NCBI GenBank assembly: GCA_002428285.1 | Contig: DIVO01000050.1 | Location: forward strand, 9,554-50,654 | Source: Patescibacteria group bacterium UBA6130 | Lineage (GTDB): Bacteria; Patescibacteriota; Microgenomatia; UBA12405; UBA6130 | DNA length: 41,101 nt | Reading direction: 5' to 3' | In this document: in pieces, positions 344 to 19,506 of the stretch | Layout: the number at the start of each line of letters is the position of its first letter | Position numbering within the stretch: the stretch's first letter is position 1 | The notes under the pieces: model-generated | Databases searched by the model: none | Seen by the model: only the letters and a program-made list of their open reading frames with translations | What the model was told of the DNA's origin: nothing | Translations under genes and position numbers: made by a program

Positions 344-790
344 ATGAAAAAAGAATATTCCGCCGGTGGTGCTGTTTATAAGACAGTCAAAATAAAAAAT
401 AAAATAGAAACTCTTTGGCTTTTAGTCAAGCATAAAAATACCAAGGGCTGGAGATTCCCAAAAGGTCATATAGAACCTGGAGAGAATGCCCGAAGAGCTG
501 CTATTAGAGAGGTAGAAGAAGAAGGAAAAGTTCAGGCAAGGTCTTTAAAAAGAGTCGGCGTTATTGATTATGTGTTTAATATTTACCAAACCACGATTAA
601 AAAATCGGTCACTTTCTTTTTGATGAAGTTTAAAAAAGGAGTCAATGATCCAAAATATAAAGAAAAGACTGTTTCCAAAACCGGCTGGTTTGATTATAAA
701 AGCGCACTTAAAAAGCTAAGGTTTCCCAAAGAAAAAGAAATATTGATAAGAGCTTTTGAATCTCTTAAGGGTAGGAAAAAAGAAAAGTAG
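344..790 (+). CDS. Nudix hydrolase
   Basis: Clear Nudix box GHIEPGENARRAAIREVEEEG (Gx5Ex7REUxEExGU). 148 aa. Confidence 0.9.
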   Translation: MKKEYSAGGAVYKTVKIKNKIETLWLLVKHKNTKGWRFPKGHIEPGENARRAAIREVEEEGKVQARSLKRVGVIDYVFNIYQTTIKKSVTFFLMKFKKGVNDPKYKEKTVSKTGWFDYKSALKKLRFPKEKEILIRAFESLKGRKKEK

Positions 791-825
791 CTTCTCTTGA
801 GATATAATTAAGCACGGTTTTATCT

Positions 826-910
826 GGAGAGGTGCTCCGAATTGGCTAAGGAACCGACCTCGAAAGTCGGCGCCCTCACGGGCTTGCGGGTTCGAGTCCC
901 GCCCTCTCCG
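826..910 (+). tRNA. tRNA-Ser (anticodon CGA), class II with long variable arm
   Basis: Acceptor GGAGAGG/CCTCTCC with discriminator G, anticodon stem CCGAC/GTCGG with loop CT-CGA-AA, long variable arm, T arm GCGGG-TTCGAGT-CCCGC. Confidence 0.9.
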
Positions 911-925
911 CCTTCGCCCGCCATA

Positions 926-1023
926 GCTTTAGCGACGGCGGGATTCGTTTCCATCCTATTTCTGTAAAATATTATTTATACTGATGTATTATGGGTCGGG
1001 CTTCGGCGGACACGTCCGCCAAG
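926..1023 (+). repeat. tRNA-trailer repeat, copy B
   Basis: See copy A. It is preceded by the hairpin CCCGCC(913-920 region)...GGCGGG immediately after tRNA-Ser. Weaker similarity continues downstream: CGCCTCTCTT..GGAATT here versus CGCCTCTCTTCCAATT at 164-179. Confidence 0.8.
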
Positions 1024-1213
1024 TTTCACTTTTTGTGAAATCGTAAGAAACAGCCCCGCCACCTGCTTGAATATTTGGAAGGCAGAACACCGCCTCTCTT
1101 GCTGGAATTAACACTTAAATTAAGTGCGACTTCACAACTGCAAGTGAATTTCATCAAGCAAGGACAAAGTGAGAAAGAGACCATGTATCCTGATATACTG
1201 CGGTAATCATTAC

Positions 1214-1579
1214 ATGTCTAAAAAAATTCTTAACAGACTTGGGCTTGGCTTACAATCAATATCCTTGAGTGTTTTATTGCTATCTATGTATGTTGATGCG
1301 TCTTGGGAATTCAGATTATCATTTGGTTTATCACAATACATTAAAGCATTGCTGCTCAACTTAACTCTACTATTTTTAGCGTATAAAAAACCACGCATTG
1401 GAGGGATTATTCTTATTCTTGTAAGCTTAGGATGTATAATTATATCCACAGCCGAGCGATTTTTACATCCATCACATTTTTATATTTTTGATCCATTAAC
1501 TATGTTTCTTTTAACAACAATTCTATTCACCTTGCCATTAATTTCGTGTATACTGTTAGTATTATCCTCAAAGAAATAG
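1214..1579 (+). CDS. Small integral membrane protein, hypothetical
   Basis: The ORF (track 1169..1579) is hydrophobic with about 4 predicted TM helices. The ATG at 1214 (MSKKILN...) is the more plausible start. No recognised motif. Confidence 0.55.
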   Translation: MSKKILNRLGLGLQSISLSVLLLSMYVDASWEFRLSFGLSQYIKALLLNLTLLFLAYKKPRIGGIILILVSLGCIIISTAERFLHPSHFYIFDPLTMFLLTTILFTLPLISCILLVLSSKK

Positions 1580-5028: not shown

Positions 5029-6831
5029 ATGAATCAGATTGAAGAGATCAAAGCTAAAGTAGATATTGTTGAGATAATTTCCCAAAGTGTAAATTTGAAA
5101 CCTGCCGGAAGAAATTTAAAAGGCTTGTGTCCTTTTCATAGTGAAAAAACTCCGTCATTTATGGTTTCTCCCGAATTGCAAATTTTTAAATGTTTTGGCT
5201 GCGGAAAATCGGGTGATGTGATTACTTTTCTTCAGGAATATGAGCGGATGGATTTTGGCGAGGCTTTGGAGCATTTAGCCCAAATTGCCGGAGTAAAACT
5301 TGAAGGTCAGAAATATTCACCAGACGAGTCAATCAAGAGAAAAATATATGAGATTAATGCTGCGGCAAAGTTTTTTTATCATTTTCTTTTAACCAAACAT
5401 GAGTCAGGCAAAAAAGCTTTAGAATACGCCCATTCGAGGGGTTTAGATCAAAAAATTATCGAAAAGTTTGGACTTGGCTTTTCTCCTCTAAAACCAGATG
5501 CTCTAGCCAATTATTTGATCAAAAAAAAGAATTACACCAAAGATGAGCTACTACAAACTGGCATATTTTTTACTTCGCAATATTCTGGCAGACAAGAGCT
5601 TTTGGACAGATTTTACGGAAGGCTTATTTTTCCCCTATTAGATCATAGAGAAAATATTGTTTCTTTTGCAGGCAGACTTATTCCTGGATATTTCAAAGAT
5701 GAGGATAAACGAGGGAAATATATTAATGGTCCTGATACTCCTGCTTATCACAAATCATATAATTTATATGGACTTTGGTTGACTAAAGAAGAGATAAGAA
5801 AAAAAGATAAGGCCGTATTGGTCGAGGGAGAGCTTGATTTGATTTCGAGCTGGAAGGCAGGAGTGAAAAATATTGTAGCCATTAAGGGAACAGCTTTAAC
5901 CCAAGAGCAGATTCAGTTAATAAAAAGATTTGCATCAAATTTAACCTTTTCTCTAGATGCCGATTTTGCTGGTGATCAGGCGGCTTTGAGGTGTGTGACA
6001 ATGGCTGACAAAGAGGGGTTGGATATGACAGCAGTTGTTTTGCCCAAAGGGGTCAAAGATCCTGACGACTTGGCCAGACTAGACCCAAAAAAATTAATAA
6101 AGGTGGTTGAAAAAGCTATACCTATTTGGGATTTTGTAATCAATAATGCTGTTCAGAGAAATGGGACCGATACCCCTCAGGGAAAAAAGAATGTCCTGAG
6201 GACGGTTTTGCCCATACTAACCCAAATTGATAATCAAGTAGTCAAAGAAGATTATTTAAAAAAACTATCTCAAACTCTTAACACAAGTTCTCAGGCAGTA
6301 ATGTCTGAGGCTCAAAAAACGATTGTATCTGCACCAAAAAAAGCCAAGGCAAATATTTTGAGTGAACCTCAAGAACCACAAGACAAACAAGACATATTGG
6401 AGGAGTATGTTTTGTCTTTGATTATGCTTAGCGGGAAACCTCAAAATTATCTTGAAAATCTTGAATTTGATAATTTTTTGGTTGATAGAATATATAAGGA
6501 ACTGAAAAAGTATTTGAAAAAGAACAAAAAATTTTCGTCATCTGCGTTTTTATCTTTTTTGTCTGAGGAGCTTAAGCCCAAGCTGGAGAAGATGTTCTTT
6601 GTTTGGGGAGATGATGAAGGCACAAACCTAGATAGGGAATTGAAAAAAATTATTACAGAACTGGAAAGGGTGAAATTAAAAAAGAAACTCAATTTATTGT
6701 CTGCCCAGATATCAGAGTCAGAAGAATCGGGAAAGGATATTAAAAAAAACAAAAACAACAAATCTTTGGAAAAACTCCAGGCAGAGTTTTCCGATCTTGC
6801 CGATCAGCTTTCAAGATTGGACGATAATTAA
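5029..6831 (+). CDS. dnaG: DNA primase
   Basis: CHC2 zinc finger CPFHSEKTPSFMVSP...FKCFGCGKSGDVITF and TOPRIM EGELDLIS...DAD. Followed by rpoD, the classical dnaG-rpoD arrangement. Confidence 0.97.
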   Translation: MNQIEEIKAKVDIVEIISQSVNLKPAGRNLKGLCPFHSEKTPSFMVSPELQIFKCFGCGKSGDVITFLQEYERMDFGEALEHLAQIAGVKLEGQKYSPDESIKRKIYEINAAAKFFYHFLLTKHESGKKALEYAHSRGLDQKIIEKFGLGFSPLKPDALANYLIKKKNYTKDELLQTGIFFTSQYSGRQELLDRFYGRLIFPLLDHRENIVSFAGRLIPGYFKDEDKRGKYINGPDTPAYHKSYNLYGLWLTKEEIRKKDKAVLVEGELDLISSWKAGVKNIVAIKGTALTQEQIQLIKRFASNLTFSLDADFAGDQAALRCVTMADKEGLDMTAVVLPKGVKDPDDLARLDPKKLIKVVEKAIPIWDFVINNAVQRNGTDTPQGKKNVLRTVLPILTQIDNQVVKEDYLKKLSQTLNTSSQAVMSEAQKTIVSAPKKAKANILSEPQEPQDKQDILEEYVLSLIMLSGKPQNYLENLEFDNFLVDRIYKELKKYLKKNKKFSSSAFLSFLSEELKPKLEKMFFVWGDDEGTNLDRELKKIITELERVKLKKKLNLLSAQISESEESGKDIKKNKNNKSLEKLQAEFSDLADQLSRLDDN

Positions 6832-6909
6832 AAAAAGAAAGCAATTATCCATATAAATTGCCAGAAAGGATGTTGATTTAAGTTCAATTTGGTGATATTA
6901 TATTTAAAT

Positions 6910-8001
6910 ATGCCCACCCCAGCTATGGAATTTGCCAAAAACAGAAAGTCATTGTTAGCCTTGGCCAAAAAGCAGGGCTTCTTGACTCAGGATGTTATAT
7001 TGGAAAAAATTGTTTCTCCTCATAAATATATTGAAGAATTAGATAAGTTTTATAACGATTTGTTTGAAAAGGGTATTGATGTATTCGAAGGCATAGATGT
7101 TGAGGATGTTAGAAGCGAAGAAGCAGTTTTAGCGGGAGGAAAAATTCCTGCGTTGTCATTGCTTGCCACTTCCACCTCCACCGATCCTGTAAGAATGTAT
7201 TTAAGAGAAATTGGAAAAGTTCCTTTGCTTTCGGGAGAGGAAGAAGTTACTCTTGCTCAAGAGATTGAGAAGGGTTCTGAAAGAGCTAGAGCAAAACTAA
7301 TTGAGTCGAATTTGAGATTGGTTGTTTCTATTGCCAAAAAATATATTGGCAGAGGTTTGACCTTTTTGGATTTAATCCAAGAAGGAAATCAGGGTTTGAT
7401 GAGAGCTGTAGAAAAATTTGATTGGCGAAGAGGTTTTAAATTTTCTACTTATGCCACTTGGTGGATCAGACAAGCCATTACAAGAGCCATTGCAGATCAG
7501 GCAAGAACTATCAGAATCCCCGTGCATATGGTGGAAACCATGAATAGAGTGTTTAAGACTGTTAGACAGTTGGCGCAGGAAAAAGGCAAGGAGCCGAGTG
7601 TGGCGGAGCTTGCAAAAGCCACAGATCTGTCTGAAGAAAAGATTAATGAAATTTTCCGGATTTCCCAAGACACTACTTCTTTGGCTGCTCCTGTAGGCGA
7701 AGAGCAGGATTCTTTTTTGGGAGATTTTATTGAAGATGTCACTTCTCCTTCCCCCTATGAGGAAACTTCAAAAGAGCTTCTTAAGGAGTCCATCACTGAT
7801 GTATTGACAAGTTTGGATGAAAGAGAAGCTAAGGTTTTGTCCTTGAGGTTTGGCTTGGATGGCGAGCCTCCAAAAACATTGGAAGATGTTGGCAAGATTT
7901 TCAATGTCACAAGAGAAAGAATTAGACAAATAGAAGCCAAGGCTTTAAGAAAACTTAGACACCCTTCGAGAAGAAAAAAACTCCAGGATTATTTAGAGTA
8001 A
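6910..8001 (+). CDS. rpoD: RNA polymerase primary sigma factor (sigma-70 family)
   Basis: Region 2 [54 protein letters not shown]. Region 4 [30 protein letters not shown]. The track ORF begins at 6889 with an alternative start, but ATG 6910 is preferred. Confidence 0.96.
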
Positions 8002-8991: not shown

Positions 8992-9345
8992 TCCTCGGTA
9001 GCTCAGTTGGTAGAGCGCCCGCCTGTCAAGTAGGCAGCCTAAGATAGTAATGTCTTAGTGAATAACTGGGTGAATTCAGGGAAGTCTAAATGGTGATAGT
9101 TTTAACCACATGATAATCCTGAGCCAATCCTTCGCTAAAGCTACGGATTGCAAGCAATCTGTTTGATGTTTGCTAATTCAATGCTTTATTGAAGGCAGGT
9201 GCAGAGACTAGGTGATTACATCTTTAAGCGCCCAGCCCCGTACACTATTTTTTAAATAGTGCGGGGATGATATAGTCCACGCCTTGACGAAAGTCTAGGA
9301 TAAAGTGTAAGCGGTTGGTCCCAGGTTCGAGTCCTGGCCGAGGAG
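8992..9345 (+). tRNA. tRNA-Asn (anticodon GUU) interrupted by a group I intron. Exons are 8992-9026 and 9308-9345.
   Basis: The joined exons give a 73-nt cloverleaf: TCCTCGG-TA-GCTC-AGTTGGTA-GAGC-G-CCCGC-CTGTTAA-GCGGT-TGGTC-CCAGG-TTCGAGT-CCTGG-CCGAGGA-G. The UCCUC.G acceptor plus G73 is close to E. coli tRNA-Asn as I recall it. There is one C27-U43 mismatch. Confidence 0.8.
9027..9307 (+). ncRNA. Group I self-splicing intron (IC3-like, tRNA anticodon-loop type), no internal ORF
   Basis: The core string AAGGCAGGTGCAGAGACTAGGTGATTAC (9192-9219) matches the Azoarcus tRNA intron core GAAGGUGUAGAGACUAGACGGCAC from memory, and CCTGAGCCAATCC matches GCCGAGCCAAGC. P7 candidate is GACTA 9206-9210 / TAGTC 9273-9277. 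P1 pairs exon CUGU 9023-9026 with GCAG 9034-9037, with a U-G wobble at the 5' splice site. G9307 immediately precedes the 3' exon. Peripheral hairpin at 9236-9266. Confidence 0.8.
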
Positions 9346-9465
9346 CAAGTTAGGCGTTACTCGACAATTTGAGTCTAGTAATGCAGCAAAAAGCGGAGTT
9401 GGTTCTGCTTTTACAATGTTCCTACCCTGAATTGGGCACAAAAAAAAGGAGCCCACTAAAATTCA

Positions 9466-9571
9466 ACTGAGTCTTTGACTCCTACAACGAGGTACTTATG
9501 CTTTATTACTTATACTCGACTCCTTTTCAAGGAGTCGTATAAATTCTAGGATTTCCTGAACCTGGAGTCAA
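9466..9571. promoter_or_regulatory. Nested inverted repeats built on GAGTC/GACTC between tRNA-Asn and the HTH gene
   Basis: GAGTC-ttt-GACTC (9469-9481). Perfect 9-bp hairpin CGACTCCTT-ttc-AAGGAGTCG (9517-9537). Outer pair TTGACTCC (9475-9482) / GGAGTCAA (9564-9571). One extra GAGTC at 9371-9375. Confidence 0.5.
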
Positions 9572-9666
9572 CAGTATTATTGGATATCAAACAATATCAA
9601 TCATTTTATTTTTCATAGTGCTTTATAAATATCAGGCAATAAAGTATAATTAAACACAATTGATAT

Positions 9667-9858
9667 ATGGCTAAGATTGAAGAACTTTTGACACTGAAAC
9701 AAGCTGCTCAAATACTCAAAGTTAATGAGCAAACTCTCCGACGTTGGGACATAGAAGGCCGATTAAAGGCTGTTAGAATCGGTTCAAGACGTGGTGTTGG
9801 AGACCGACGTTATAGACCTGAAGATATTAAAGATTATCTAAACAGGCAAAAGAAATAA
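9667..9858 (+). CDS. Small helix-turn-helix DNA-binding protein (excisionase/MerR-superfamily type)
   Basis: LLTLKQAAQILKVNEQTLRRWDIEGRLKAVRIG....RYRPEDI fits the excisionase-family HTH pattern. It lies 17 nt upstream of hsdR. Confidence 0.7.
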   Translation: MAKIEELLTLKQAAQILKVNEQTLRRWDIEGRLKAVRIGSRRGVGDRRYRPEDIKDYLNRQKK

Positions 9859-9875
9859 TAGGAAATAAAATAAAT

Positions 9876-12098
9876 ATGACAGATATAAATAATGCCTCAA
9901 AAGAGGCAGACTCAAGGATTATTGTTGACCGATTGCTTCGAGAAGCAGGTTGGAACATTGAAGATAAAAATCAGGTCACTACAGAAGAAGCAACTCAAGA
10001 CGGCAGGGCCGATTATTTACTTTTAGACAGTCGAAGTCGTCCACTAGCCGTTGTCGAAACAAAAAGGTTCAGCAAAGACCCGTACACCGCCAAAGAACAA
10101 GCGGAAACCTATGCTAAAACGCTCCAAGCCCCGTTTATATTTCTTTCCAATGGTGAGGATACCTATTTTTGGGATTATGAGAAAGCGGACGCAAGGCTGG
10201 TTGATTCATTTTTCTCTCGTTTTGATTTGGAAAGAATTTCTACTTTAAGAAAGTATCAAAAGCCTCTCTCAACAATTCCTATTTCAGAGAAATTCTTTTT
10301 TAAGGGAAAAGAAATTACTGTCAGACCCTATCAAAAAGAGGCTTTGCAAACCATAGATAAAGCGTTAGAGGAAAACAAACGTCGTTTATTGGTTGAGATG
10401 GCAACAGGAACAGGTAAAACACTAGTTGCCGCCATGATGATTAAAAGATTATTTCAGGCAGGATTAGTGGAAAGAGTTTTATTTTTGGTTGACAGGATTG
10501 AACTTGCTAACCAAGCCAAAGAAACCTTTGACGACTATCTTTCTGAATATCCCTCAATTGTTTTATATGGTGGAAAGAGGAGTAAAGAAGGACAAATTGT
10601 TATCGGCACACTTCCTACAATTCAATTCCAGATTGACTCATTTACCAGTGGCTATTTTGATTTGGTAGTGACAGATGAATGTCATCGCTCAATTTATAGT
10701 ATTTATCGTTCCTTGCTTCTCCACTTTGACGCTATTCATATTGGTTTAACTGCCACCCCCAGCAATTTAATTGACAGAAACACATATGAGTTTTTTGGCT
10801 GTTGGAATCCATTAAGTAGAAAGGGAGAGCCAACATATATTTATGGAATAAGGCAAGGCATTAATGATGGGTATCTTGCTCCTTACAAGGTTTACCATGC
10901 TAGGTCAAAGATTTCTTTAGAGGGCATCAATTGGCAGGGAGAAGATTACGAACCGCAGGATTTGGAAAGAACCATTTCTGTTGAAGATAGAAACAAATTG
11001 TTTGTTCAGGAATTTAAGGAAAATGAAGAAAAAAGAGATGGCGACCATCCAAGAAAAACCATTGTTTTTGCCATTACTAAAAGACACGCTTCCCAACTAA
11101 CTAGATTTTTCAATGAAATGTATCCTGAATACAAAGGTAAATATGCCGAGATTATTACCACTGATACTTTTGACCCGCAAAGAGCTATTAAACGCTTTAA
11201 AAAGGAATCTTTGCCAGTTATAGCGGTTTCTGTGGCTATGCTTGATACGGGATTTGACTATCCGGCAGTTGAAAACCTGATGATGTGTCGGCCTACCCGT
11301 TCACCTATCTTTTATCAGCAAATGAGGGGTCGAGGTTCTCGTCTTTGCCCTGAAGTGGGTAAAAATGAATATCTTATTTATGACTTTGTTGGCAATGCAG
11401 AATACTTTAATGATGAAGGCTATAACCCCTTTGAACAGAAGAAAACAGCTATCAGAATGCCAGTAGAAGAAGTCGAAAAAGAGGAGGTTGTTGAGGAACA
11501 AATACCAGAACATATAATTAGGCAGTTTGTCACCATTCCCCTAGGTCAAGCTCACGATGAATGGGTGGAGAGAAAATATATCGAATTTGGACCAGACGGA
11601 GAAAAAGTTGATGCCAGAGAATATAAAGATAAATTTGCCGAAGAAGTAAAGAAGCTAGCTGATACCAACGAAATTATTATTAAACTCAAACAGCTACAAG
11701 ATGTTACTGATGAGGAAGTACAAGAACTGGGCGAACTTCTCAACCACCCCGAATTCTTTTTTAACGAAAACAATTTAAGACAAGCCTATGACCAACCAAC
11801 AGGCAACTTGGTTGATTTTGTTAAATCAGCTCTCGGAATGCACAAGTTCCCGACCAAAGAAGACAGAGTGAGTCAAGCCTTTGACGCCTGGATAATTCAA
11901 AAGAACTTTGCTCCTGAACAAGTCAGAATTTTAAGAATGCTCAAGAATCAATTCTTAGCAGGGAGTAAAGCAGATATTCAAGATTTCAGCCGACCCCCCA
12001 TCTCACAATATGGTGGTTTGCAATATGCCGTAAAAGTATTCGGTGAAGATGGCTTAAAGCAAGTGGTTACCGATTTACAGCAAGGAGTATTTATATGA
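9876..12098 (+). CDS. hsdR: Type I restriction enzyme, R subunit (EcoEI/type IB-like short form)
   Basis: N-terminal PD-(D/E)xK (GRADYLLLD...LAVVETKR). SF2 helicase motifs MATGTGKT, DECHR, GLTATP and QMRGRGSR. A C-terminal helical domain resembles the EcoEI R C-terminal domain. It overlaps the hsdM start by 4 nt. Confidence 0.93.
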   Translation: MTDINNASKEADSRIIVDRLLREAGWNIEDKNQVTTEEATQDGRADYLLLDSRSRPLAVVETKRFSKDPYTAKEQAETYAKTLQAPFIFLSNGEDTYFWDYEKADARLVDSFFSRFDLERISTLRKYQKPLSTIPISEKFFFKGKEITVRPYQKEALQTIDKALEENKRRLLVEMATGTGKTLVAAMMIKRLFQAGLVERVLFLVDRIELANQAKETFDDYLSEYPSIVLYGGKRSKEGQIVIGTLPTIQFQIDSFTSGYFDLVVTDECHRSIYSIYRSLLLHFDAIHIGLTATPSNLIDRNTYEFFGCWNPLSRKGEPTYIYGIRQGINDGYLAPYKVYHARSKISLEGINWQGEDYEPQDLERTISVEDRNKLFVQEFKENEEKRDGDHPRKTIVFAITKRHASQLTRFFNEMYPEYKGKYAEIITTDTFDPQRAIKRFKKESLPVIAVSVAMLDTGFDYPAVENLMMCRPTRSPIFYQQMRGRGSRLCPEVGKNEYLIYDFVGNAEYFNDEGYNPFEQKKTAIRMPVEEVEKEEVVEEQIPEHIIRQFVTIPLGQAHDEWVERKYIEFGPDGEKVDAREYKDKFAEEVKKLADTNEIIIKLKQLQDVTDEEVQELGELLNHPEFFFNENNLRQAYDQPTGNLVDFVKSALGMHKFPTKEDRVSQAFDAWIIQKNFAPEQVRILRMLKNQFLAGSKADIQDFSRPPISQYGGLQYAVKVFGEDGLKQVVTDLQQGVFI

Positions 12099-13609
12099 CC
12101 AAGATTCCAAAACAAGAACTCCAGTCAACCATAGACCAGATTTGCAATAAATTGTGGGCAGCGGGTTTGACTAACCCTATTACTTACATCGAACAAATAT
12201 CTTATTTCTTTTTTCTTAAGATGCTTGAGGAATGGGATAACCAGAAAGCTAAAGAAGCGAAACTTATCGGACACACTAACGGGAATAAGTCCATGTTTGA
12301 GGGAGAAAATGAAAAATATCGCTGGAGCCAATGGACACATATTGCCGACAATACCCAGATGTATAAATTCGTTCGTGATGAAGTGTTTCCTTTTATGGCA
12401 AACCTTCCAGGAACCAATGAGGCAGTTAGGCGGTTCTTTGATGATGCCAGATTTCAAATTCCTGATGGAGTAGTCCTTCGGGATGTTGTCGATAAACTTC
12501 GAGACGTTTCCTTTATCGAGCTCGATGCTGATGTTAAAGGTGATTTATACGAATATCTTCTAAACCAACTCACAACTTCAGGCAAAGCAGGACAATTTAG
12601 AACTCCAAGGCATATTATTCGAACCATTGTTCAACTAACCAATCCTCAAATTGGTGAAACAATATTAGACCCCGCCAGCGGTACAGGTGGTTTTCTCTTA
12701 GGAGCTTACGAATGGATAAAACTTTGCAATTCAGACCCTAAAAATATTGAGGAATTAGTTAATGGTGGTGGACAGATATCCAAAAAAGGCCCAGGAGACA
12801 AGCTCAATCCTTCACAGTGGCAATTCCTACAAAGTGGAACGTTTTACGGCTTTGACGTTGACGCTGCAATGGTCAAGATTGCCACTATGAACCTTATTCT
12901 TCATGGTTTGGATAAATCGCAAGTAATAAGGCGTGATGCAGTGGCTGGTAGTCCTGATGAGTGGGAAGACCGAGAATATGACGTGATTATCTCCAATCCT
13001 CCATTTGCGGGAACTATTAATAAGGAAAGGGTTAGAAAATATTTACCTGTTCAATCAACTGATACTACAACCTTGTTTTTAGGATTGATGATTGATGCCC
13101 TAAGACCAGGCGGAAGAGCAGGGGTAATTGTCAACGAAGGAATCCTTTTTAACCGAAACAAGGCCTCACAGGAAGTAAGACGTTATCTCATGGATAAAAG
13201 AAATCTTGTAGCAGTTGTTTCTTTGCCTGGTGGTATTTTTCAACCTTATTCTGGAGTTAAAACAAGTGTTTTGTTCTTTAACAATGATGGCAAGAAAACA
13301 GAAAAGGTATGGTTTTATGAAGTTCAACAAGATGGGTTTGGACTTGCAACTCAAAGAAAACCAACTCCAGATAAAAATGACCTTCCAGACTTGATTGAGA
13401 AGTGGTCAACCAAACCAGAATCTGCAAACAGTTGGTTTGCAACCAAAGCACAGATAGAAGAGAACAACTTTATTATTTCCTCATCTGCATATAAGCCGTT
13501 AACGAAGGATGACTTTGTCTACCGAGACCCAAAAGAGATTTTCAAAGAAATTCAGGAATTAAATAAACAATCCCAAGAGCAATTAAAGAAAATTGAAAAA
13601 TTTATATGA
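12095..13609 (+). CDS. hsdM: Type I restriction-modification system, N6-adenine DNA methyltransferase subunit
   Basis: Motif I DPASGTGGFL, motif IV ISNPPFAG, and an HsdM N-terminal helical domain. Confidence 0.95.
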   Translation: MTKIPKQELQSTIDQICNKLWAAGLTNPITYIEQISYFFFLKMLEEWDNQKAKEAKLIGHTNGNKSMFEGENEKYRWSQWTHIADNTQMYKFVRDEVFPFMANLPGTNEAVRRFFDDARFQIPDGVVLRDVVDKLRDVSFIELDADVKGDLYEYLLNQLTTSGKAGQFRTPRHIIRTIVQLTNPQIGETILDPASGTGGFLLGAYEWIKLCNSDPKNIEELVNGGGQISKKGPGDKLNPSQWQFLQSGTFYGFDVDAAMVKIATMNLILHGLDKSQVIRRDAVAGSPDEWEDREYDVIISNPPFAGTINKERVRKYLPVQSTDTTTLFLGLMIDALRPGGRAGVIVNEGILFNRNKASQEVRRYLMDKRNLVAVVSLPGGIFQPYSGVKTSVLFFNNDGKKTEKVWFYEVQQDGFGLATQRKPTPDKNDLPDLIEKWSTKPESANSWFATKAQIEENNFIISSSAYKPLTKDDFVYRDPKEIFKEIQELNKQSQEQLKKIEKFI

Positions 13610-14310
13610 ACTATAAATTTATTGCAACCCAGTTTGGAGAGGCAGTTAAATACGATACAACCGTTAACGAAGTAAGCAGAACTTTCAATGCCCTCACCAA
13701 CCTCAAAAGGAAAGATTATGTCAATGATGCAATTACTTCAGCTCGTTCAGGATTGATTTATTCATGGGTGATGACTATTGGCGACTCAAACCTTGAAGAA
13801 TCAGACAAATGTGAACTTGTAAGGCAGGCAATAAATACAATAGTGATAAACGACAAGGTAAAAGAAAAGCTGTTGGGATTACTGGGGACATCGAGATGTT
13901 TACCTAAAACGAATTCGTCTAGTTATGTGAACTCAAGCAGGCTAGATGAAATTAAAGCGTTGAATTGTAAAAATTTTGATTTATCTAGGTTGATAAAACT
14001 TTGTGACGAGTTAAATATGTCTTTCGAAAATAAGTGCTATTTTTCTGTTGCAATACTGGTTCGGTCATTATTAGACCATGTTCCGCCAATCTTTGGAGTA
14101 GGCTCATTTACGGAACTGGCCAATAACTATCAAGGGACAAGGAGTTTCAAGGCACAAATGCAGCATCTTGAATTGTCATCTCGGAAAATAGCCGACTCAT
14201 ATTTACATACACAAATTAGAAATAAGGAATCGTTGCCCAACTCAACGCAAGTGGATTTTTCAAACGACCTAGATGTGTTGTTAGGCGAGGTGTACCGATT
14301 ATTAAAATAA
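13606..14310 (+). CDS. Uncharacterised 234-aa protein inserted between hsdM and hsdS
   Basis: ATGA overlap with the hsdM stop and a 1-nt gap to the hsdS start. No catalytic motif recognised. The C-terminal half is helical (..LVRSLLDHVPPIFG...SSRKIADSYLHTQIR..). Confidence 0.7.
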   Translation: MNYKFIATQFGEAVKYDTTVNEVSRTFNALTNLKRKDYVNDAITSARSGLIYSWVMTIGDSNLEESDKCELVRQAINTIVINDKVKEKLLGLLGTSRCLPKTNSSSYVNSSRLDEIKALNCKNFDLSRLIKLCDELNMSFENKCYFSVAILVRSLLDHVPPIFGVGSFTELANNYQGTRSFKAQMQHLELSSRKIADSYLHTQIRNKESLPNSTQVDFSNDLDVLLGEVYRLLK

Positions 14311-14311
14311 T

Positions 14312-15478
14312 ATGAATAACTGGCAAGCTAAGAAACTTGGAGATATAACAGTAATAAATGGTGGAGGAACACCTCCTACAAGCCATGCTGAATATTTTAA
14401 TGGCGATGTGCCTTGGTTTACTCCTTCCGAGATTACCTCTGGAACAGTTTCCGTTTTAACTAATAGTCAAAGGCAAATTACAGAAGAAGCAACGAAGTTC
14501 TCTAAGGTAGCCGAGCAAGGAACGGTTTTATTGTCTAGTAGGGCAACTATAGGAAATATTGGAATAGTAGCTAATCGTTCAACTTACAATCAAGGAATTA
14601 AAGGAATAACCCCAAAAGAAGATTTAAACTCATGGTTTCTTGCTTACTGGCTATTAGCAAACAAAAAAGGATTAGAAAAATCATCATTTGGAACAACATT
14701 TAAAGAATTAAGCACAACAGCTCTAAAAAAATTTGATATTACAATTCCGCCTATTTCTGTTCAACAAAAAATTGTTGAGCGTTTAGACTCAATCAGAAAA
14801 TTGCAGGAATTAAACCAAAAAGAAATTGAAAAGGCAGAAGAATTATTTGACTCATTATTGAGTGTTAAATTTTACCCCAATAAAGCATATAAAAGGTTAA
14901 ATTTTGAAGATGTCGTTACTTTTAAGAGGGGGCCTTTTGGTGGTTCACTAAAGAAAGAAATATTTGTCTCAGACGGTTTTAGAGTTTATGAGCAAAGAAA
15001 TGCGATATATGATGATTTTACTAACTGTAGGTATTTTATTACTGAAGAGAAATATAAAGAGATGATTGGTTTTGCTGTTAAAACTGGGGATTTAATAGTT
15101 AGTTGCTCGGGGACAATTGGAAAGGTTGCCTTGGTACCGAATAAAGTTTCTCCAGGAATCATAAATCAAGCCTTACTAAAAATTACTCCAAAAATAGATA
15201 TTGTCCTCAGCGAATACCTCAAATATTTAATTCAGAGTAGAGATATGCAGATTAAAATGTTTGGAAATGCCCGTGGTTCTTCTATTAAAAATATCGTTTC
15301 GATTAAAGAGATAAAAAAACTTGTTTTATCTCTACCATCTATTAAAGAACAACAGCAAATTGTTAAGGAGTTAGATTTTGTAGCAAATATACATGAGACT
15401 AAAATTCTATTAAAGAAATCAATATCGCAAATCTATGAAAATAGCCTCATTAAGGCAATGAAAGGAGAAATGGTTTAA
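14312..15478 (+). CDS. hsdS: Type I restriction-modification system, specificity subunit
   Basis: 388 aa with two target-recognition halves. Each begins with a ..G..PP../..GPFGG.. type segment and ends in a conserved helical spacer (PPISVQQKIVERLDSI... and LPSIKEQQQIVKELDF...). Its position follows hsdM. Confidence 0.9.
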   Translation: MNNWQAKKLGDITVINGGGTPPTSHAEYFNGDVPWFTPSEITSGTVSVLTNSQRQITEEATKFSKVAEQGTVLLSSRATIGNIGIVANRSTYNQGIKGITPKEDLNSWFLAYWLLANKKGLEKSSFGTTFKELSTTALKKFDITIPPISVQQKIVERLDSIRKLQELNQKEIEKAEELFDSLLSVKFYPNKAYKRLNFEDVVTFKRGPFGGSLKKEIFVSDGFRVYEQRNAIYDDFTNCRYFITEEKYKEMIGFAVKTGDLIVSCSGTIGKVALVPNKVSPGIINQALLKITPKIDIVLSEYLKYLIQSRDMQIKMFGNARGSSIKNIVSIKEIKKLVLSLPSIKEQQQIVKELDFVANIHETKILLKKSISQIYENSLIKAMKGEMV

Positions 15479-15480
15479 TA

Positions 15481-15807
15481 ATGAAAATTATTTATAAAAC
15501 AAAATTCTATTGCATGTTTTGTAAAAAAGAACTCCCGTTAGATGTATATGGTAGTGATGTTAGTGCGAGTGAAGATAAGGAATTTGATAAAGAGGTAAAA
15601 GAGTGGGGTGAGCATTACCATTGGATAGATGCACACAGGAGATGTGCTATATGTGGCGAATTGGTTACCTCTGATGACTTGGAGTTGTTAGTAAACGATG
15701 GGAAAACTAACATTCACGAAGAATATCTCAACCAAACCTATGAAAAAAGTCATAAAGGACATTTGTTAACCGTTCATGGAAAATGCATTAAAGAAAACAA
15801 CTTATGA
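15481..15807 (+). CDS. Uncharacterised small zinc-ribbon-like protein (108 aa)
   Basis: Two CxxC pairs (CMFC, CAIC) plus His-rich HYHWIDAH and HGKC. It starts 2 nt after the hsdS stop and overlaps the next ORF by 4 nt. Confidence 0.65.
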   Translation: MKIIYKTKFYCMFCKKELPLDVYGSDVSASEDKEFDKEVKEWGEHYHWIDAHRRCAICGELVTSDDLELLVNDGKTNIHEEYLNQTYEKSHKGHLLTVHGKCIKENNL

Positions 15808-17108
15808 AGGTTGAAGATAAACCAAAATATGTTAAGGAAGCAAGGGAGTTGCAAGACTCAATAAATGTCGATTCTCTAATTGATGACCCCAACGAACTTT
15901 CTACATTGAGGAAAATTAGCCGCTTGATAGCTATTTTTACCAATTTTTCTTATAACGATGGCCAAGAACTGAAACGTCTATTATTAGAATTCCAGAAGTG
16001 GTCAAGACGTAGCACGAGTGTAGGTACTATTCGAAACAGAGCTGTTGACATGCTCCAATTCATTAGCCAAAAAATTGAAGAGATGGATATTTATGTAATA
16101 GATGAACCAATAAAAAAGAACCAGGATAGAATTGTCAGTAAACTAAAGAATGAGAAATATTGGGTTCAACAGAATCTGGAAGGAAAAGACTTACATATTA
16201 TCGTTGGAGAAAGAAGTGCTAAACAAGGAGAGCACATACATGTTATTAGCGACTCAGATACGGGTGAAATTAGGTTCGACTCCAAAGACCAGCAACCAAG
16301 TGAACTATTAGAACGAGTGGTTAGTTTAGTAACTAAGAGTGGAACTACTATCGGGGTAACTCAAAAAGGGATTAAAACAACAACTGAATTTATCGAGACA
16401 AATATAGAAGGTAATCCCAATAAAGATATACCGATTCTTTATGCAACAGGAGTGCGTCGAAGTGGTGGGTCAAAAGGCCATTTCGAGTATGTCATGATTA
16501 AAAATATTGGAAAGGAAATTGCCCTAGATATTCATTGGGGAATCAGAGGATTTGCTTATGAATGGAGACCGACGGAAGAACCTTTTGAGTTGGAGGCTAG
16601 CAAGGAGCGAGAGGTTACCTATCCAATTTCGGAAGAAAAGGTATTTAAGGAGGACATTCCTGAGCTAAACGTGATAATGGAGTATAAAGATGTTAACGGC
16701 AATGCTTATTTCACTCGAAGAGAGCTTAAACAAATTAGAGTATCATCTGGGGCATTCTTTAAACTTAAAGCTGATACATTTCATCCTCCGTCCATATTAG
16801 TAGATGATGGCCTTGAAATAGTTTCTGAGCCAATTCGAACTGGGGATAGAGTCGAGGCCACCTTTAAGATTGGAGTTCAAGGTCAGACTAAGCTGGTAAA
16901 AATAGGGTTGAGTGGCAACCTAATAGCTGTTCTAGACCTACAGACAGGTGATTTATTAAGACAGGCAATACTTGAGCTTGCCCACAGGAAAATACGAAAG
17001 ATGGTTAAATTAGATAGCCTTGCGGATTATAGTTTTACCACCCACGACCTACCAGAAGGTCATCCAGTAGGATTTGGTGCTTACGTTCTCCTAAGAGATT
17101 CCATATAG
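15804..17108 (+). CDS. Uncharacterised 434-aa protein, last gene of the hsd transcription unit
   Basis: Long clean ORF with a helical N-terminal third and a beta-rich remainder. No P-loop, nuclease or methylase motif recognised. Confidence 0.7.
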   Translation: MKVEDKPKYVKEARELQDSINVDSLIDDPNELSTLRKISRLIAIFTNFSYNDGQELKRLLLEFQKWSRRSTSVGTIRNRAVDMLQFISQKIEEMDIYVIDEPIKKNQDRIVSKLKNEKYWVQQNLEGKDLHIIVGERSAKQGEHIHVISDSDTGEIRFDSKDQQPSELLERVVSLVTKSGTTIGVTQKGIKTTTEFIETNIEGNPNKDIPILYATGVRRSGGSKGHFEYVMIKNIGKEIALDIHWGIRGFAYEWRPTEEPFELEASKEREVTYPISEEKVFKEDIPELNVIMEYKDVNGNAYFTRRELKQIRVSSGAFFKLKADTFHPPSILVDDGLEIVSEPIRTGDRVEATFKIGVQGQTKLVKIGLSGNLIAVLDLQTGDLLRQAILELAHRKIRKMVKLDSLADYSFTTHDLPEGHPVGFGAYVLLRDSI

Positions 17109-17283
17109 TTGCGTTTGATAGTGCACTTACCAAAGCACCCCAGCATCTTTTTGATGGTTTGGCCTTACCTGTTTCGATATAAGAAATGTATTCCCGAGTA
17201 TACCCACTCAGATTAGCTAGTTGTTGTTGACTAATGTGCTTTTTGCCCCTTGTTCTTAAGGCATACAGTTCGTTTGGTTTCAT
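17035..17283 (-). CDS. XRE-family helix-turn-helix transcriptional regulator
   Basis: ISQQQLANLSGYTREYISYIETGKAKPS is a canonical Cro/C1 HTH. A GGAGGTG RBS lies 7 nt upstream of the ATG. The 3' end overlaps the convergent 434-aa ORF by 74 nt. Confidence 0.85.
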   Translation of the reverse strand: MKPNELYALRTRGKKHISQQQLANLSGYTREYISYIETGKAKPSKRCWGALVSALSNATIWNLLGERKHQILLDDLLVGRGW

Positions 17284-17551
17284 AAGTGACCACCTCCATA
17301 TTTGAATCGTCGCTAAGGACTTTATTCTCTTCTACATCTTTTATCATCTCTAACTGATTCTTTACTTGAGACATTACCTCTTTATCTAGGAGTACAGCAG
17401 GAACATCTGCTGGTCTGGGGAGCTGAATTTGTCTTAATCTACCTAAAATATCAGTGGATTATTTATTAAAACGAATTTATTATATCGATCTGTTTTCTTA
17501 TTAGATAGGAATTTGGACATTATTATTAATTAAGTCTATAGTTAAATTATA

Positions 17552-17809
17552 ATGAGTAAGTTGAAAGATTTTTTACTTGATACAGGTTTTAAAAGAGATA
17601 AACTTAAAACTCCTTATAAACTCCTTTTATCGGGTTGTTTTCTTTTATTTATGATACTTTTATATATCATATTTGGAGATTTAGGAATTATTGGTGCGGG
17701 AATTTATGCGGGAGTTTCATATTATTTTGGTAAAGGTCTCTTTTTGTTAATTATTAAGGCTTTCAAAAAAGATATTTACTACTCTGGAGAATATAGGGCA
17801 GATAAATAA
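17552..17809 (+). CDS. Small membrane protein (85 aa, 2 TM)
   Basis: Two hydrophobic helices. No motif. Confidence 0.45.
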   Translation: MSKLKDFLLDTGFKRDKLKTPYKLLLSGCFLLFMILLYIIFGDLGIIGAGIYAGVSYYFGKGLFLLIIKAFKKDIYYSGEYRADK

Positions 17810-17913
17810 GGAACGCTAAGCCGCAACTTTTATTACATCTGAATCTGTTTCAGTCTTTCTCTTTTATTCTTTTAATTATCATATTTATCTATTTTTGATA
17901 GAATAGTCTTAAT

Positions 17914-18837
17914 ATGCCGATTTATAAACAGACCGATAGCAAGCTCATTCCTATTAAAGAAAAGAAGGTAGGTCTTGAAAAAACCCTACAAAATCTAGTT
18001 GAAGCCAACTTGAGTGATGTTTTTGCTTTGAATTTTATTGCTGCGGAATTTCCTTTAAACAATCTTCGGATTGATACGCTGGCTTTTGATGAAGAAGCTA
18101 AGGCTTTTGTGGTTATTGAATACAAGCGAGATAGAAACTTTACAGTAATAGACCAGGGCTATGCTTATCTTGCCCTGTTGCTAAACAACAAGGCAGATTT
18201 TGTCCTTGAATATAATGAGAAGACTAAAAAAAATTTGAGAAAAGACGATATTGATTGGTCACAGTCTAAGGTGATGTTTGTTGCTCAGTCTTTCACAAAA
18301 TACCAGCAGGAAGCTATCGGATTTCAGGATTTGCCAATTGAACTTTGGGAAGTAAAGAAATATGATGAGCGTTTAGTTTCTTTTAACCAGGTAAGAGCGT
18401 CTGAAAAAAGCGAGAGCATAAAAACTATTACTAAGAATAAAGATATTCAGCAGGTGTCTAGGGAAATTAAACAGTATTCAGTTAAAGACCATATCAAGTC
18501 TAATTGGAGCAAGTCTAGGGAGCTATTTGATGAGTTTTCCCAGCGGGTTTTGGAGCTTGACACTCGTTTTGAGACAAAACCAGTAAAATCCTATATAGGT
18601 TTCCGTATAGGAAATAAAAATGTAATAAATGTTAAACCTAGAAGTTCTAAAGTGGTAATCGAATTTTTAAGAACTCAACCTCAGGATTTGAAAGACCCAG
18701 AAAAGAGAGTAACTTATTTTAAAAATAGCTTCAAGTATTACAACCAGCACGTAAGTTTATTCAGTGTTGAAAATGAAGATGATATTGACTATGGTATATC
18801 TCTTGTAAAACAGGTTTATAGGAAATTTACCGAGTAA
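17914..18837 (+). CDS. PD-(D/E)xK (NucS/DUF91-like) nuclease-fold protein with a DUF5655-like C-terminal domain
   Basis: N-terminal RIDTLAFDEEAKAFVVIEYKRDRN...VIDQGYAYLALL fits the D...ExK restriction-endonuclease-like core. The C-terminal ..SYIGFRIGNKNVINVKPRSSKVVIEF.. resembles DUF5655 (family name from memory). Confidence 0.65.
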   Translation: MPIYKQTDSKLIPIKEKKVGLEKTLQNLVEANLSDVFALNFIAAEFPLNNLRIDTLAFDEEAKAFVVIEYKRDRNFTVIDQGYAYLALLLNNKADFVLEYNEKTKKNLRKDDIDWSQSKVMFVAQSFTKYQQEAIGFQDLPIELWEVKKYDERLVSFNQVRASEKSESIKTITKNKDIQQVSREIKQYSVKDHIKSNWSKSRELFDEFSQRVLELDTRFETKPVKSYIGFRIGNKNVINVKPRSSKVVIEFLRTQPQDLKDPEKRVTYFKNSFKYYNQHVSLFSVENEDDIDYGISLVKQVYRKFTE

Positions 18838-18845
18838 TCATAATT

Positions 18846-19166
18846 ATGTTTAAACACACAAAAGCTTTTTACCGTGCTATAGCCAGAATTAGAGCAATTG
18901 GTAACAAAGATGGTATTGTATATCTTCGCCGTTTGAAATCCAAACTGGGTTTAGGGTATGTAAGAACAGCAAGGCTAAAGGATGAGCTGGTAGAAGCAGG
19001 CGTGTTAAGAGAATGGAGTGAAGAAGATCTTAGGGGGCTACCTATAAGAAAAGGGGTTAAGGGTAACATCAACTGGGAACGGTTGAGCAAATTTAGAGTC
19101 CCGAAAGAAATTACTAAAAAAGAAGAGGCTCTTGTTAGGGAAGATCGAAAGCAGGGTTTATTCTAA
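18846..19166 (+). CDS. Stand-alone FtsK-gamma-like winged-helix protein (106 aa)
   Basis: YLRRLKSKLGLGYVRTARLKDELVEAGVL parallels the FtsK gamma-domain consensus LQR.L.IGYNRAARLIDQME..GIV. It starts 8 nt after the preceding gene. Confidence 0.55.
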   Translation: MFKHTKAFYRAIARIRAIGNKDGIVYLRRLKSKLGLGYVRTARLKDELVEAGVLREWSEEDLRGLPIRKGVKGNINWERLSKFRVPKEITKKEEALVREDRKQGLF

Positions 19167-19290
19167 GGATTTCAAAAGCGGTTTTGATATTTTGTAAGGT
19201 AAGACCAAACTCAAGTTCTTGGTTGATAAATAAGTCCTTTAGGGGGAGCTTAGGTTGGTTTAATCTGACCATGTTGGAAGGCGGTGATTT

Positions 19291-19506
19291 ATGAAAAAAG
19301 ATAGACTTCATATAGCTTTAGTAATAGGTGGAGTTATTATTATTGCTGTTATTTATTTATGGAATTCAATGCAACAACAAAATATTTGTGTAGACTTTTG
19401 TTTAAAGGAAATAACTAGAAGACAGCAAGAAGCATCTGGTGATACAGACACCATTCAAGGTCAAATGAATTACTGCCAAGACGCTTGTTCTAAGAAAACT
19501 TATTAA
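19291..19506 (+). CDS. Small membrane-anchored Cys-containing protein (71 aa)
   Basis: N-terminal TM helix. 4 Cys in the exposed part. GGAAGG-type RBS upstream. Confidence 0.45.
   Translation: MKKDRLHIALVIGGVIIIAVIYLWNSMQQQNICVDFCLKEITRRQQEASGDTDTIQGQMNYCQDACSKKTY

Follow-up and report, generated by a model that had tools for sequence, protein, structure and literature searches.

Two orphan genes at the end of a patescibacterial restriction–modification operon are probably separate items of defence cargo

The end of a Type I restriction–modification (R-M) operon in Patescibacteria group bacterium UBA6130 raises the question of whether two adjacent orphan genes form one anti-phage system or arrived there independently. 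The window, i.e. the whole analysed stretch of 41,101 nucleotides (contig DIVO01000050.1, positions 9,554 to 50,654), carries on its plus strand zn108 (15481-15807), encoding a 108-aa cysteine- and histidine-containing protein with relatives at approximately 20 loci, and p434 (15804-17108), encoding a modular 434-aa protein. An earlier note made from the DNA sequence had described the small protein as a zinc-ribbon sensor or adaptor and the large one as its effector. The gene layout given there is exact by the coordinates of the open reading frames (ORFs), with a gap of 2 nt between hsdS and zn108 and a 4-nt overlap (ATGA) between zn108 and p434. Both genes are also, as it had held, genuine orphans in defence-type neighbourhoods, with relatives elsewhere and no library family. 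The reading preferred here, to which we assign a probability of about 0.6, is that an R-M operon headed by an HTH_17 gene, itself part of a defence island, has a cargo slot at its 3' end, that both genes are separate defence cargo, and that p434 would be an R-M-linked second-line protein whose C-terminal module senses, whose N-terminal module docks or auto-inhibits and whose middle module executes.

Within the window the case for a dedicated pair looks strong. The overlap implies translational coupling, the setting is a defence island, and a large gene nearly always follows tightly behind the relatives of zn108. A simple scan of positions 9000-19500 returned 14 terminator-like sites where 6.7 +/- 2.6 would be expected; most lie within genes on the minus strand, and none falls between hsdS, zn108 and p434. 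Judging from the ATGA overlap, the two genes are likely to be co-expressed in this genome, where they may also cooperate; the association is recent and not conserved. The p434 family was followed at 24 loci, comprising the window, 20 fetched genome loci and three obtained by exact look-ups (loci are referred to below by their L numbers). tblastn found no relative of zn108 at the 20 fetched loci, and a zn108 hidden Markov model (HMM) applied to all 24 at E<=10 recovered the window's own gene and nothing at the other 23. Reciprocally, tblastn detected no p434 relative at the approximately 20 zn108 loci, over which HMMs of the three p434 modules (N, M and C) gave a single weak N-module-like match (E ~1e-4, in L039). 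Adjacency of zn108 and p434 is thus confined to the window, which counts against the pair on the earlier note's own terms.

The alignment of the DNA breaks at the same place. The window aligns to L022 and L023 from the leader gene through hsdM and again over the 3' end of hsdS and zn108 (15432-15800, 75%), and there the similarity stops; to L002, L003 and L004 it aligns only from 15794/15804 on, that is, over p434. The Type I operon of L002 is the same one (protein identity of hsdR 91%) and has an unrelated 221-aa ORF in the position of zn108, and L022-24 have a zn109 gene followed by a Shedu nuclease in place of p434. A mosaic that breaks exactly at the zn108/p434 junction points to independent cassettes joined at the gene boundary. 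On the strength of these alignments the two genes are best described as independently shuffled cassettes set side by side by recombination, not as a conserved pair, and the co-occurrence test largely refutes the dedicated partnership. The lesson is that a tight overlap of two orphans does not make a system; it took co-occurrence to separate them.

Considered on its own, the zn108 product is a 12.7 kDa acidic protein (isoelectric point 5.8) that looks soluble, without a hydrophobic segment. The two CxxC pairs and the histidines that had drawn attention to it are present and invariant in all seven family members compared (C11, C14, H45, H47, H52, C55, C58, H79, H99 and C102), the knuckles being C11-x2-C14 and C55-x2-C58. 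Five invariant cysteines and five invariant histidines are enough ligands for two metal sites, which the protein is predicted probably to have. The conserved Cys/His metal-binding pattern agrees with the designation as a zinc ribbon; on the side of the fold, the top four PDB profile matches are all Spt4/RpoE'' zinc ribbons, at E values of 0.06-0.3 that fall below significance. Sequence comparison with Pfam, PADLOC, NCBIfam, PHROGs and the PDB gave no match, and a Pfam scan found no WYL, helix-turn-helix (HTH), ribbon-helix-helix (RHH) or AbrB domain. The source record calls a 97-aa protein starting at M12 (15514-15807). This start drops the family-invariant F9 and C11, the latter being the first cysteine of the first CxxC, so the 108-aa start is the correct one; approximately 13 nt upstream of its ATG lies AAAGGAG, with a GGAG box. 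Relatives comprise six proteins and 13 further metagenome loci and reach 52-73% protein identity in other metagenomes, as relatives of p434 do at 44-72%, which marks both as real genes.

While a large same-strand gene follows the zn108 relatives at -59 to +126 nt, mostly <=25 nt, the identity of that gene shifts from locus to locus. SduA (Shedu) nucleases of several subfamilies stand 3' of the zn108 relative in L022-24, L027, L035 and L038, with Pfam/PADLOC matches to SduA in the zn-linked proteins of L022, L035 and L038. SduA lies on the 5' side in L028/31/32, in the order SduA, 70-aa gene, zn, and L040 has an SduA-like fragment 5' of the relative. Elsewhere the neighbour is a DUF3800 protein, the PADLOC candidate PDC-M04A, whose cassette is duplicated in tandem (L025/33/36), an unknown protein of 211, 345 or 811 aa (L030, L034 and L037) or a bPH_2 membrane protein (L041), and only in the window is it p434. 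Two further ideas about these neighbours were dropped. A shared N-terminal docking segment was rejected when BLAST and the module HMMs found nothing common to the partners beyond the Shedu nuclease domain itself, and a role for zn108 as an accessory of hsdS or of R-M was rejected because its relatives occur without any R-M in L027, L025, L034, L035 and L038. The notion of a small zinc-binding partner with a large effector thus survives loosely, for a promiscuous leader gene found mostly with Shedu nucleases, and fails for a dedicated union with p434. We regard zn108 as a portable leader gene ahead of differing large defence-type genes; by analogy with KELA and its Shedu nuclease, its role would most likely be a generic one, that of regulator or co-factor to whichever effector follows.

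Several of the zn108 loci have features of their own. L025 contains a tandem duplicate cassette (5600-7065 and 9866-11308) consisting of genes for a 115-117-aa protein, zn110 and DUF3800, in which the DUF3800 copies are 100% identical and the zn110 copies only about 75%. The genes 5' of the zn108 relative in L034 (4709-6342) and L038 (2679-4319) encode a LexA-like S24 peptidase repressor and proteins of 67 and 103 aa, a string that suggests SOS-type regulation of the cassette; a LexA-like gene is also found near the relative in L035. The weak match in L039 belongs to a 384-aa protein (365-1519, plus strand) encoded directly 5' of the zn108 relative, which starts at 1529. Its N-terminus matches the p434 N-module HMM, with the E value referring to a small database, and over its middle region it shares 34% identity with the product of orf234 from the window. 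From this tentative link there is a hint that orf234, zn108 and p434 may take part in one shuffling network.

For the p434 family, 110 relatives were found, and 130 representatives at 50% clustering. Comparison of p434 with Pfam, PADLOC, NCBIfam, PHROGs and PDB sequences gave no match, and its full-length AlphaFold2 model (pLDDT, the predicted local distance difference test, of 79), compared with the PDB and BFVD by Foldseek, retrieved generic immunoglobulin (Ig)-like sandwiches or low-TM and partial beta-sandwich matches only. The model bears out the helical N-terminus and beta-rich remainder foreseen by the earlier note, which had also rightly seen no enzymatic motif, and no known structural or phage protein has emerged as a match from PHROGs, the PDB, BFVD or IMG/VR. 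Since the viral contigs of IMG/VR contain relatives of neither p434 nor zn108, a phage origin of the genes was rejected. Nearly all named hosts of the p434 family are metagenome-assembled genomes (MAGs) of Patescibacteria, also called the Candidate Phyla Radiation (CPR), and both families occur almost only in such MAGs and in metagenomes.

BLAST and HMM mapping divide p434 into three modules, all on the plus strand. The N module (residues 1-104, 15804-16115) is helical and four-helix-bundle-like (pLDDT ~90); its PDB matches are generic four-helix bundles only, at E>=0.02. It is the best-conserved part of the family, 50-73% identical even in relatives that carry TIR or Mrr domains, and the relative P0083 is 73% identical to p434 over N and 39% over C. 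The M module, a 90-aa all-beta domain (residues 108-198, 16125-16397) whose HMM finds 126 of the retrieved proteins, came out poorly in the full-length model, and a deeper domain alignment raised the pLDDT to 86.6 and resolved eight beta strands. Its signature is H131, H146, T153-G-E-x-R157, P165 and G180. M has no fold neighbour by Foldseek (best E 0.069), no PDB profile match and no Pfam family across 43 carriers, and a profile search of a 5.8-billion-protein set with the M alignment returned only 15 short unannotated proteins. The C module (residues 205-434, 16416-17105), made of beta-sandwiches and a helical tail (pLDDT >90), matches only generic Ig-like sandwiches by Foldseek.

One link of the family to defence is the way in which these modules are combined. 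A census of the retrieved proteins counted the architectures N-M-C (60), N-X-C (36), N-X (24), X-C (23), X-M (23), X-M-X (14), X-M-C (7) and M-C (7). In the N-X-C relatives the slot otherwise filled by M holds TIR_2 (precomputed Pfam) or Mrr_cat; Pfam finds neither domain in p434 itself. C without N is fused to AbiEii, NTP_transf_8, HNH_2 or AAA_14/DUF4143, and N alone is joined to CAP12-PCTIR_TIR (a CAP12/Pycsar-type TIR) and PLDc_2. Such fusions to predicted effector domains are a signature of conflict systems. That orf234 might correspond to the X portion of the N-X proteins of 343 aa was considered and rejected.

Genomic position adds a second link. N-module proteins are encoded on the same strand at or near the end of an R-M-type operon in 7 of the 15 loci with enough upstream sequence. 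p434 itself and its homolog in L002 end Type I operons; in L049 the order is HTH_17, Type III Mod and Res, an AAA_15/21 ATPase and then the N-module protein; and a SNF2/PLD helicase with an Eco57I/MmeI-type methylase precedes an N-M-C protein in L051-53 (11-nt overlap), an N-Mrr-C protein in L010 and L008, and a 343-aa N-X protein in L019. The last arrangement is a recurrent two-gene operon (L051 2-6011, L008 630-6372, L010 2427-8008, L019 2293-7995) made of a SNF2 helicase-PLD fusion and a 1100-1235-aa Eco57I/MmeI-type methylase with TaqI_C, the N-module protein coming third; the operon resembles a minimal restriction system akin to DISARM or Type ISP. In L050 the context is an AAA_15/21 ATPase and an S51 peptidase, and in L004 and L006 an HTH_17 leader stands directly 5' of the p434 homolog with no R-M between. 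Among 140 neighbouring ORFs of the family, Eco57I/N6_Mtase was seen 5 times, N6_N4 and ResIII 4 times each, AbiEi 3-4 times, PD-(D/E)XK and resolvases 3 times each, and PLD and Type ISP twice each. The immediate flanks are otherwise variable, and homologs also occur alone or behind unrelated genes.

The family's place as the last gene of three kinds of R-M-type operon leads us to infer a second-line defence linked to R-M, with a logic like that of PrrC or Ronin. In the common layout of a four-helix-bundle-like N module, a variable middle slot (TIR, Mrr or M) and a C-terminal beta-sandwich module, sensing of a trigger would fall to the C module, docking or auto-inhibition to the N module and execution to the middle domain. 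The output of the TIR and Mrr relatives would be NAD+ breakdown or DNA cleavage, judging from the known functions of these domains, while that of p434 would probably be non-enzymatic binding through M. Several points weigh against this scheme. Its attribution to defence rests on guilt by association and on domain fusions. The samples of loci were small and obtained by pattern-based retrieval, which makes the frequencies rough. The R-M types ahead of the p434 family differ, and a single common physical docking partner is accordingly less obvious. No effector can be recognised in p434 itself, the M domain is without structural or sequence neighbour, and the partners of zn108 lack a common segment that it could recognise. 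A full-length p434 homolog lies among metabolic genes in L005, and standalone M proteins adjoin the housekeeping genes dnaX, surE, serS and that of a mur ligase. M is therefore not defence-specific and is not claimed as a toxin; the idea of M as a new toxic enzyme in the effector slot, which likewise found no support from fold or profile neighbours, was downgraded.

These last contexts are also the starting point for the view that defence is not involved at all, with p434 a protein particular to CPR that serves in structure, adhesion or housekeeping, zn108 an unrelated small metalloprotein, and both collected, like other lineage-specific genes, in a variable island. The absence of an enzymatic domain from p434, the Ig-like beta-sandwich of its C module, the housekeeping settings of M-only proteins and the metabolic neighbourhood in L005 are all consistent with it. 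Against it stand the fusions of the N and C modules to TIR, Mrr, HNH, AbiEii, PLD and CAP12-TIR and the family's recurrence at the same-strand terminal position of three kinds of R-M operon; p434 has no signal peptide or membrane segment visible in its sequence, and Shedu nucleases repeatedly lie beside zn108. We hold this view to be quite improbable. Very improbable, to our mind, is the dedicated two-component system with zn108 as zinc-ribbon sensor or adaptor and p434 as effector: for all the translational coupling, the tightly following large genes of the zn108 relatives and the defence-island setting, the two are neighbours in one organism, the reciprocal searches came back empty, the mosaic breaks exactly between them, and p434 homologs stand alone or behind unrelated genes.

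A different role for the small protein would be that of a promiscuous antitoxin or neutraliser that silences Shedu nucleases, DUF3800 proteins and p434 in the manner of the hyper-promiscuous antitoxin domains. A small upstream gene separated by short gaps or overlaps from diverse large partners fits this picture, as do the bona fide nucleases (SduA) among those partners and the toxin-type domains in relatives of p434. Against it, most p434-family and most Shedu genes occur without zn108, which means that the effectors are tolerated in its absence, and the gene order is reversed in L028/31/32. Nor does zn108 resemble a Type II antitoxin: gene pairing is not conserved, the HTH, RHH and AbrB domains are missing from it, and no known DNA-binding antitoxin fold was matched in Pfam or in PDB sequence and profile searches. 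This explanation is, in our estimate, unlikely.

The operon that received this cargo has seven same-strand genes, all on the plus strand. It opens with a 63-aa HTH_17/MerR-like leader (9667-9858; Pfam HTH_17 E=6e-12, PADLOC mad1-like E=1.5e-9), followed by hsdR, encoding a Type I restriction subunit of the EcoEI_R_C type (9876-12098; Pfam ResIII, EcoEI_R_C and HSDR_N, PADLOC REase_I E=4e-90), hsdM, encoding the Type I methyltransferase (12095-13609; Pfam N6_Mtase and HsdM_N, PADLOC MTase_I E=9e-148), orf234 (13606-14310), hsdS, encoding the Type I specificity subunit (14312-15478; Pfam Methylase_S E=2e-45), and then zn108 and p434. Homologous HTH_17 leaders head sister operons in L002, L022 and L049, and small HTH_17/MerR-like (mad1-like) genes repeatedly open the defence operons of the window, L002, L004, L006, L022 and L049. 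The 234-aa product of orf234 is likewise orphan cargo, for which Pfam, PADLOC, NCBIfam and PHROGs gave no family; its gene overlaps hsdM by 4 nt, leaves a 1-nt gap to hsdS and so occupies a PrrC-like position. The slot between hsdM and hsdS, a second variable one, differs among sister operons: L022/L024 have a homolog of 234 aa there, L023 an unrelated membrane protein of 247 aa and L002 a protein of 231 aa that is again unrelated. hsdS is itself a mosaic, in which L002 matches the first target-recognition domain and the central region (79% DNA identity, 14311-14848) and not the second half, and L022/L023 match only one short central block. Downstream, an XRE-type HTH gene on the minus strand (17035-17283; Pfam HTH_3 E=3e-8), convergent to p434, overlaps its 3' end by 74 nt, an arrangement that is not kept at other p434 homologs. 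The PDC-S18 candidate defence gene (DUF5655; 17914-18837, plus strand; PADLOC PDC-S18 E=3e-102), 0.8 kb downstream of p434, identifies the region as a defence island; a copy that is 38% identical lies near the zn108 relative in L037.

CPR bacteria are ultra-small, with tiny genomes, and little work has gone into their defence against phages other than R-M. In the p434 family, suicide effectors of known kinds are combined with three modules that are new, at the ends of three R-M operon types. If it monitors restriction, the guardian concept known from PrrC, Ronin and PARIS would extend to a new phylum and to new folds, and the M, TIR and Mrr variants would offer a natural series in which the coupling of sensing to output could be dissected. 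With zn108, Shedu systems would gain another kind of small partner besides KELA. Whether the N-[M/TIR/Mrr]-C proteins amount to a new class of restriction-operon guardians in CPR, with N coupling swappable effectors to several R-M types and M as an unseen executor or binding domain, and zn108 to a new promiscuous metal-binding co-factor controlling Shedu and other effectors, is a tentative suggestion that we would rather doubt than endorse.

Among known proteins, the archaeal Spt4/RpoE'' zinc ribbons resemble zn108 in being small and having a CxxC-containing knuckle, but zn108 has five additional invariant His/Cys residues and another ligand order, and no link to transcription elongation is implied. 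Another parallel for zn108 is KELShedu, a bicistronic system in which the small partner KELA, of approximately 110 aa, is encoded directly 5' of the Shedu nuclease KELB (PMC12577705); likewise, at least four lineages have an SduA gene behind a relative of zn108. KELA is reported to have a CapW/BrxR-like beta-sheet fold and to bind the N-domain of the nuclease; the zn108 sequence has a Cys/His metal-binding pattern and no WYL match in Pfam. Shedu has otherwise been described as a single-protein system (10.1101/2023.08.10.552793), and p434 does not belong to it, having neither the SduA_C/DUF4263 PD-(D/E)XK domain (PF14082) nor a PADLOC match to SduA. In its build the p434 family recalls Avs/STAND proteins and those Shedu proteins with variable N-domains, which also combine constant modules with swappable effectors such as TIR, Mrr, HNH and PLD; it differs in that it lacks an NTPase module and places the effector between two constant modules.

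For p434 the nearest precedents are the established guardians of R-M, namely PrrC inside EcoprrI, RonA with HsdMS and PARIS, which senses anti-restriction proteins (PMC12707154; 10.1101/2023.04.06.535777). PrrC (an anticodon nuclease in a Type IC R-M locus), Ronin and PARIS resemble p434 in being extra genes within or appended to an R-M operon, a position held by the p434 family in the window, L002, L049, L051, L010, L019 and L008. The proposed common logic is a second-line response once restriction has been disabled, and relatives of p434 carry the suicide-type domains TIR and Mrr. The guardians differ from p434 in sequence and domains: ABC-ATPase, HEPN, transmembrane and OLD/Toprim domains are all absent from p434, and in particular Pfam, NCBIfam and PADLOC find in it neither the ABC-ATPase-like N-domain nor the HEPN C-domain of PrrC. 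Ronin is a small transmembrane effector beside hsdS/hsdM with hsdR missing, whereas here hsdR is present and zn108 looks soluble. The p434 family moreover follows three R-M types and not one. The N, M and C modules and zn108 are new, without a counterpart in Pfam, PADLOC or the PDB, and are almost confined to a phylum that has been little studied. Overall, the locus is of a known kind, that of defence-island cargo, swappable effectors and accessory genes linked to R-M, and what it adds to that kind is a set of new domains and the zn108 leader.

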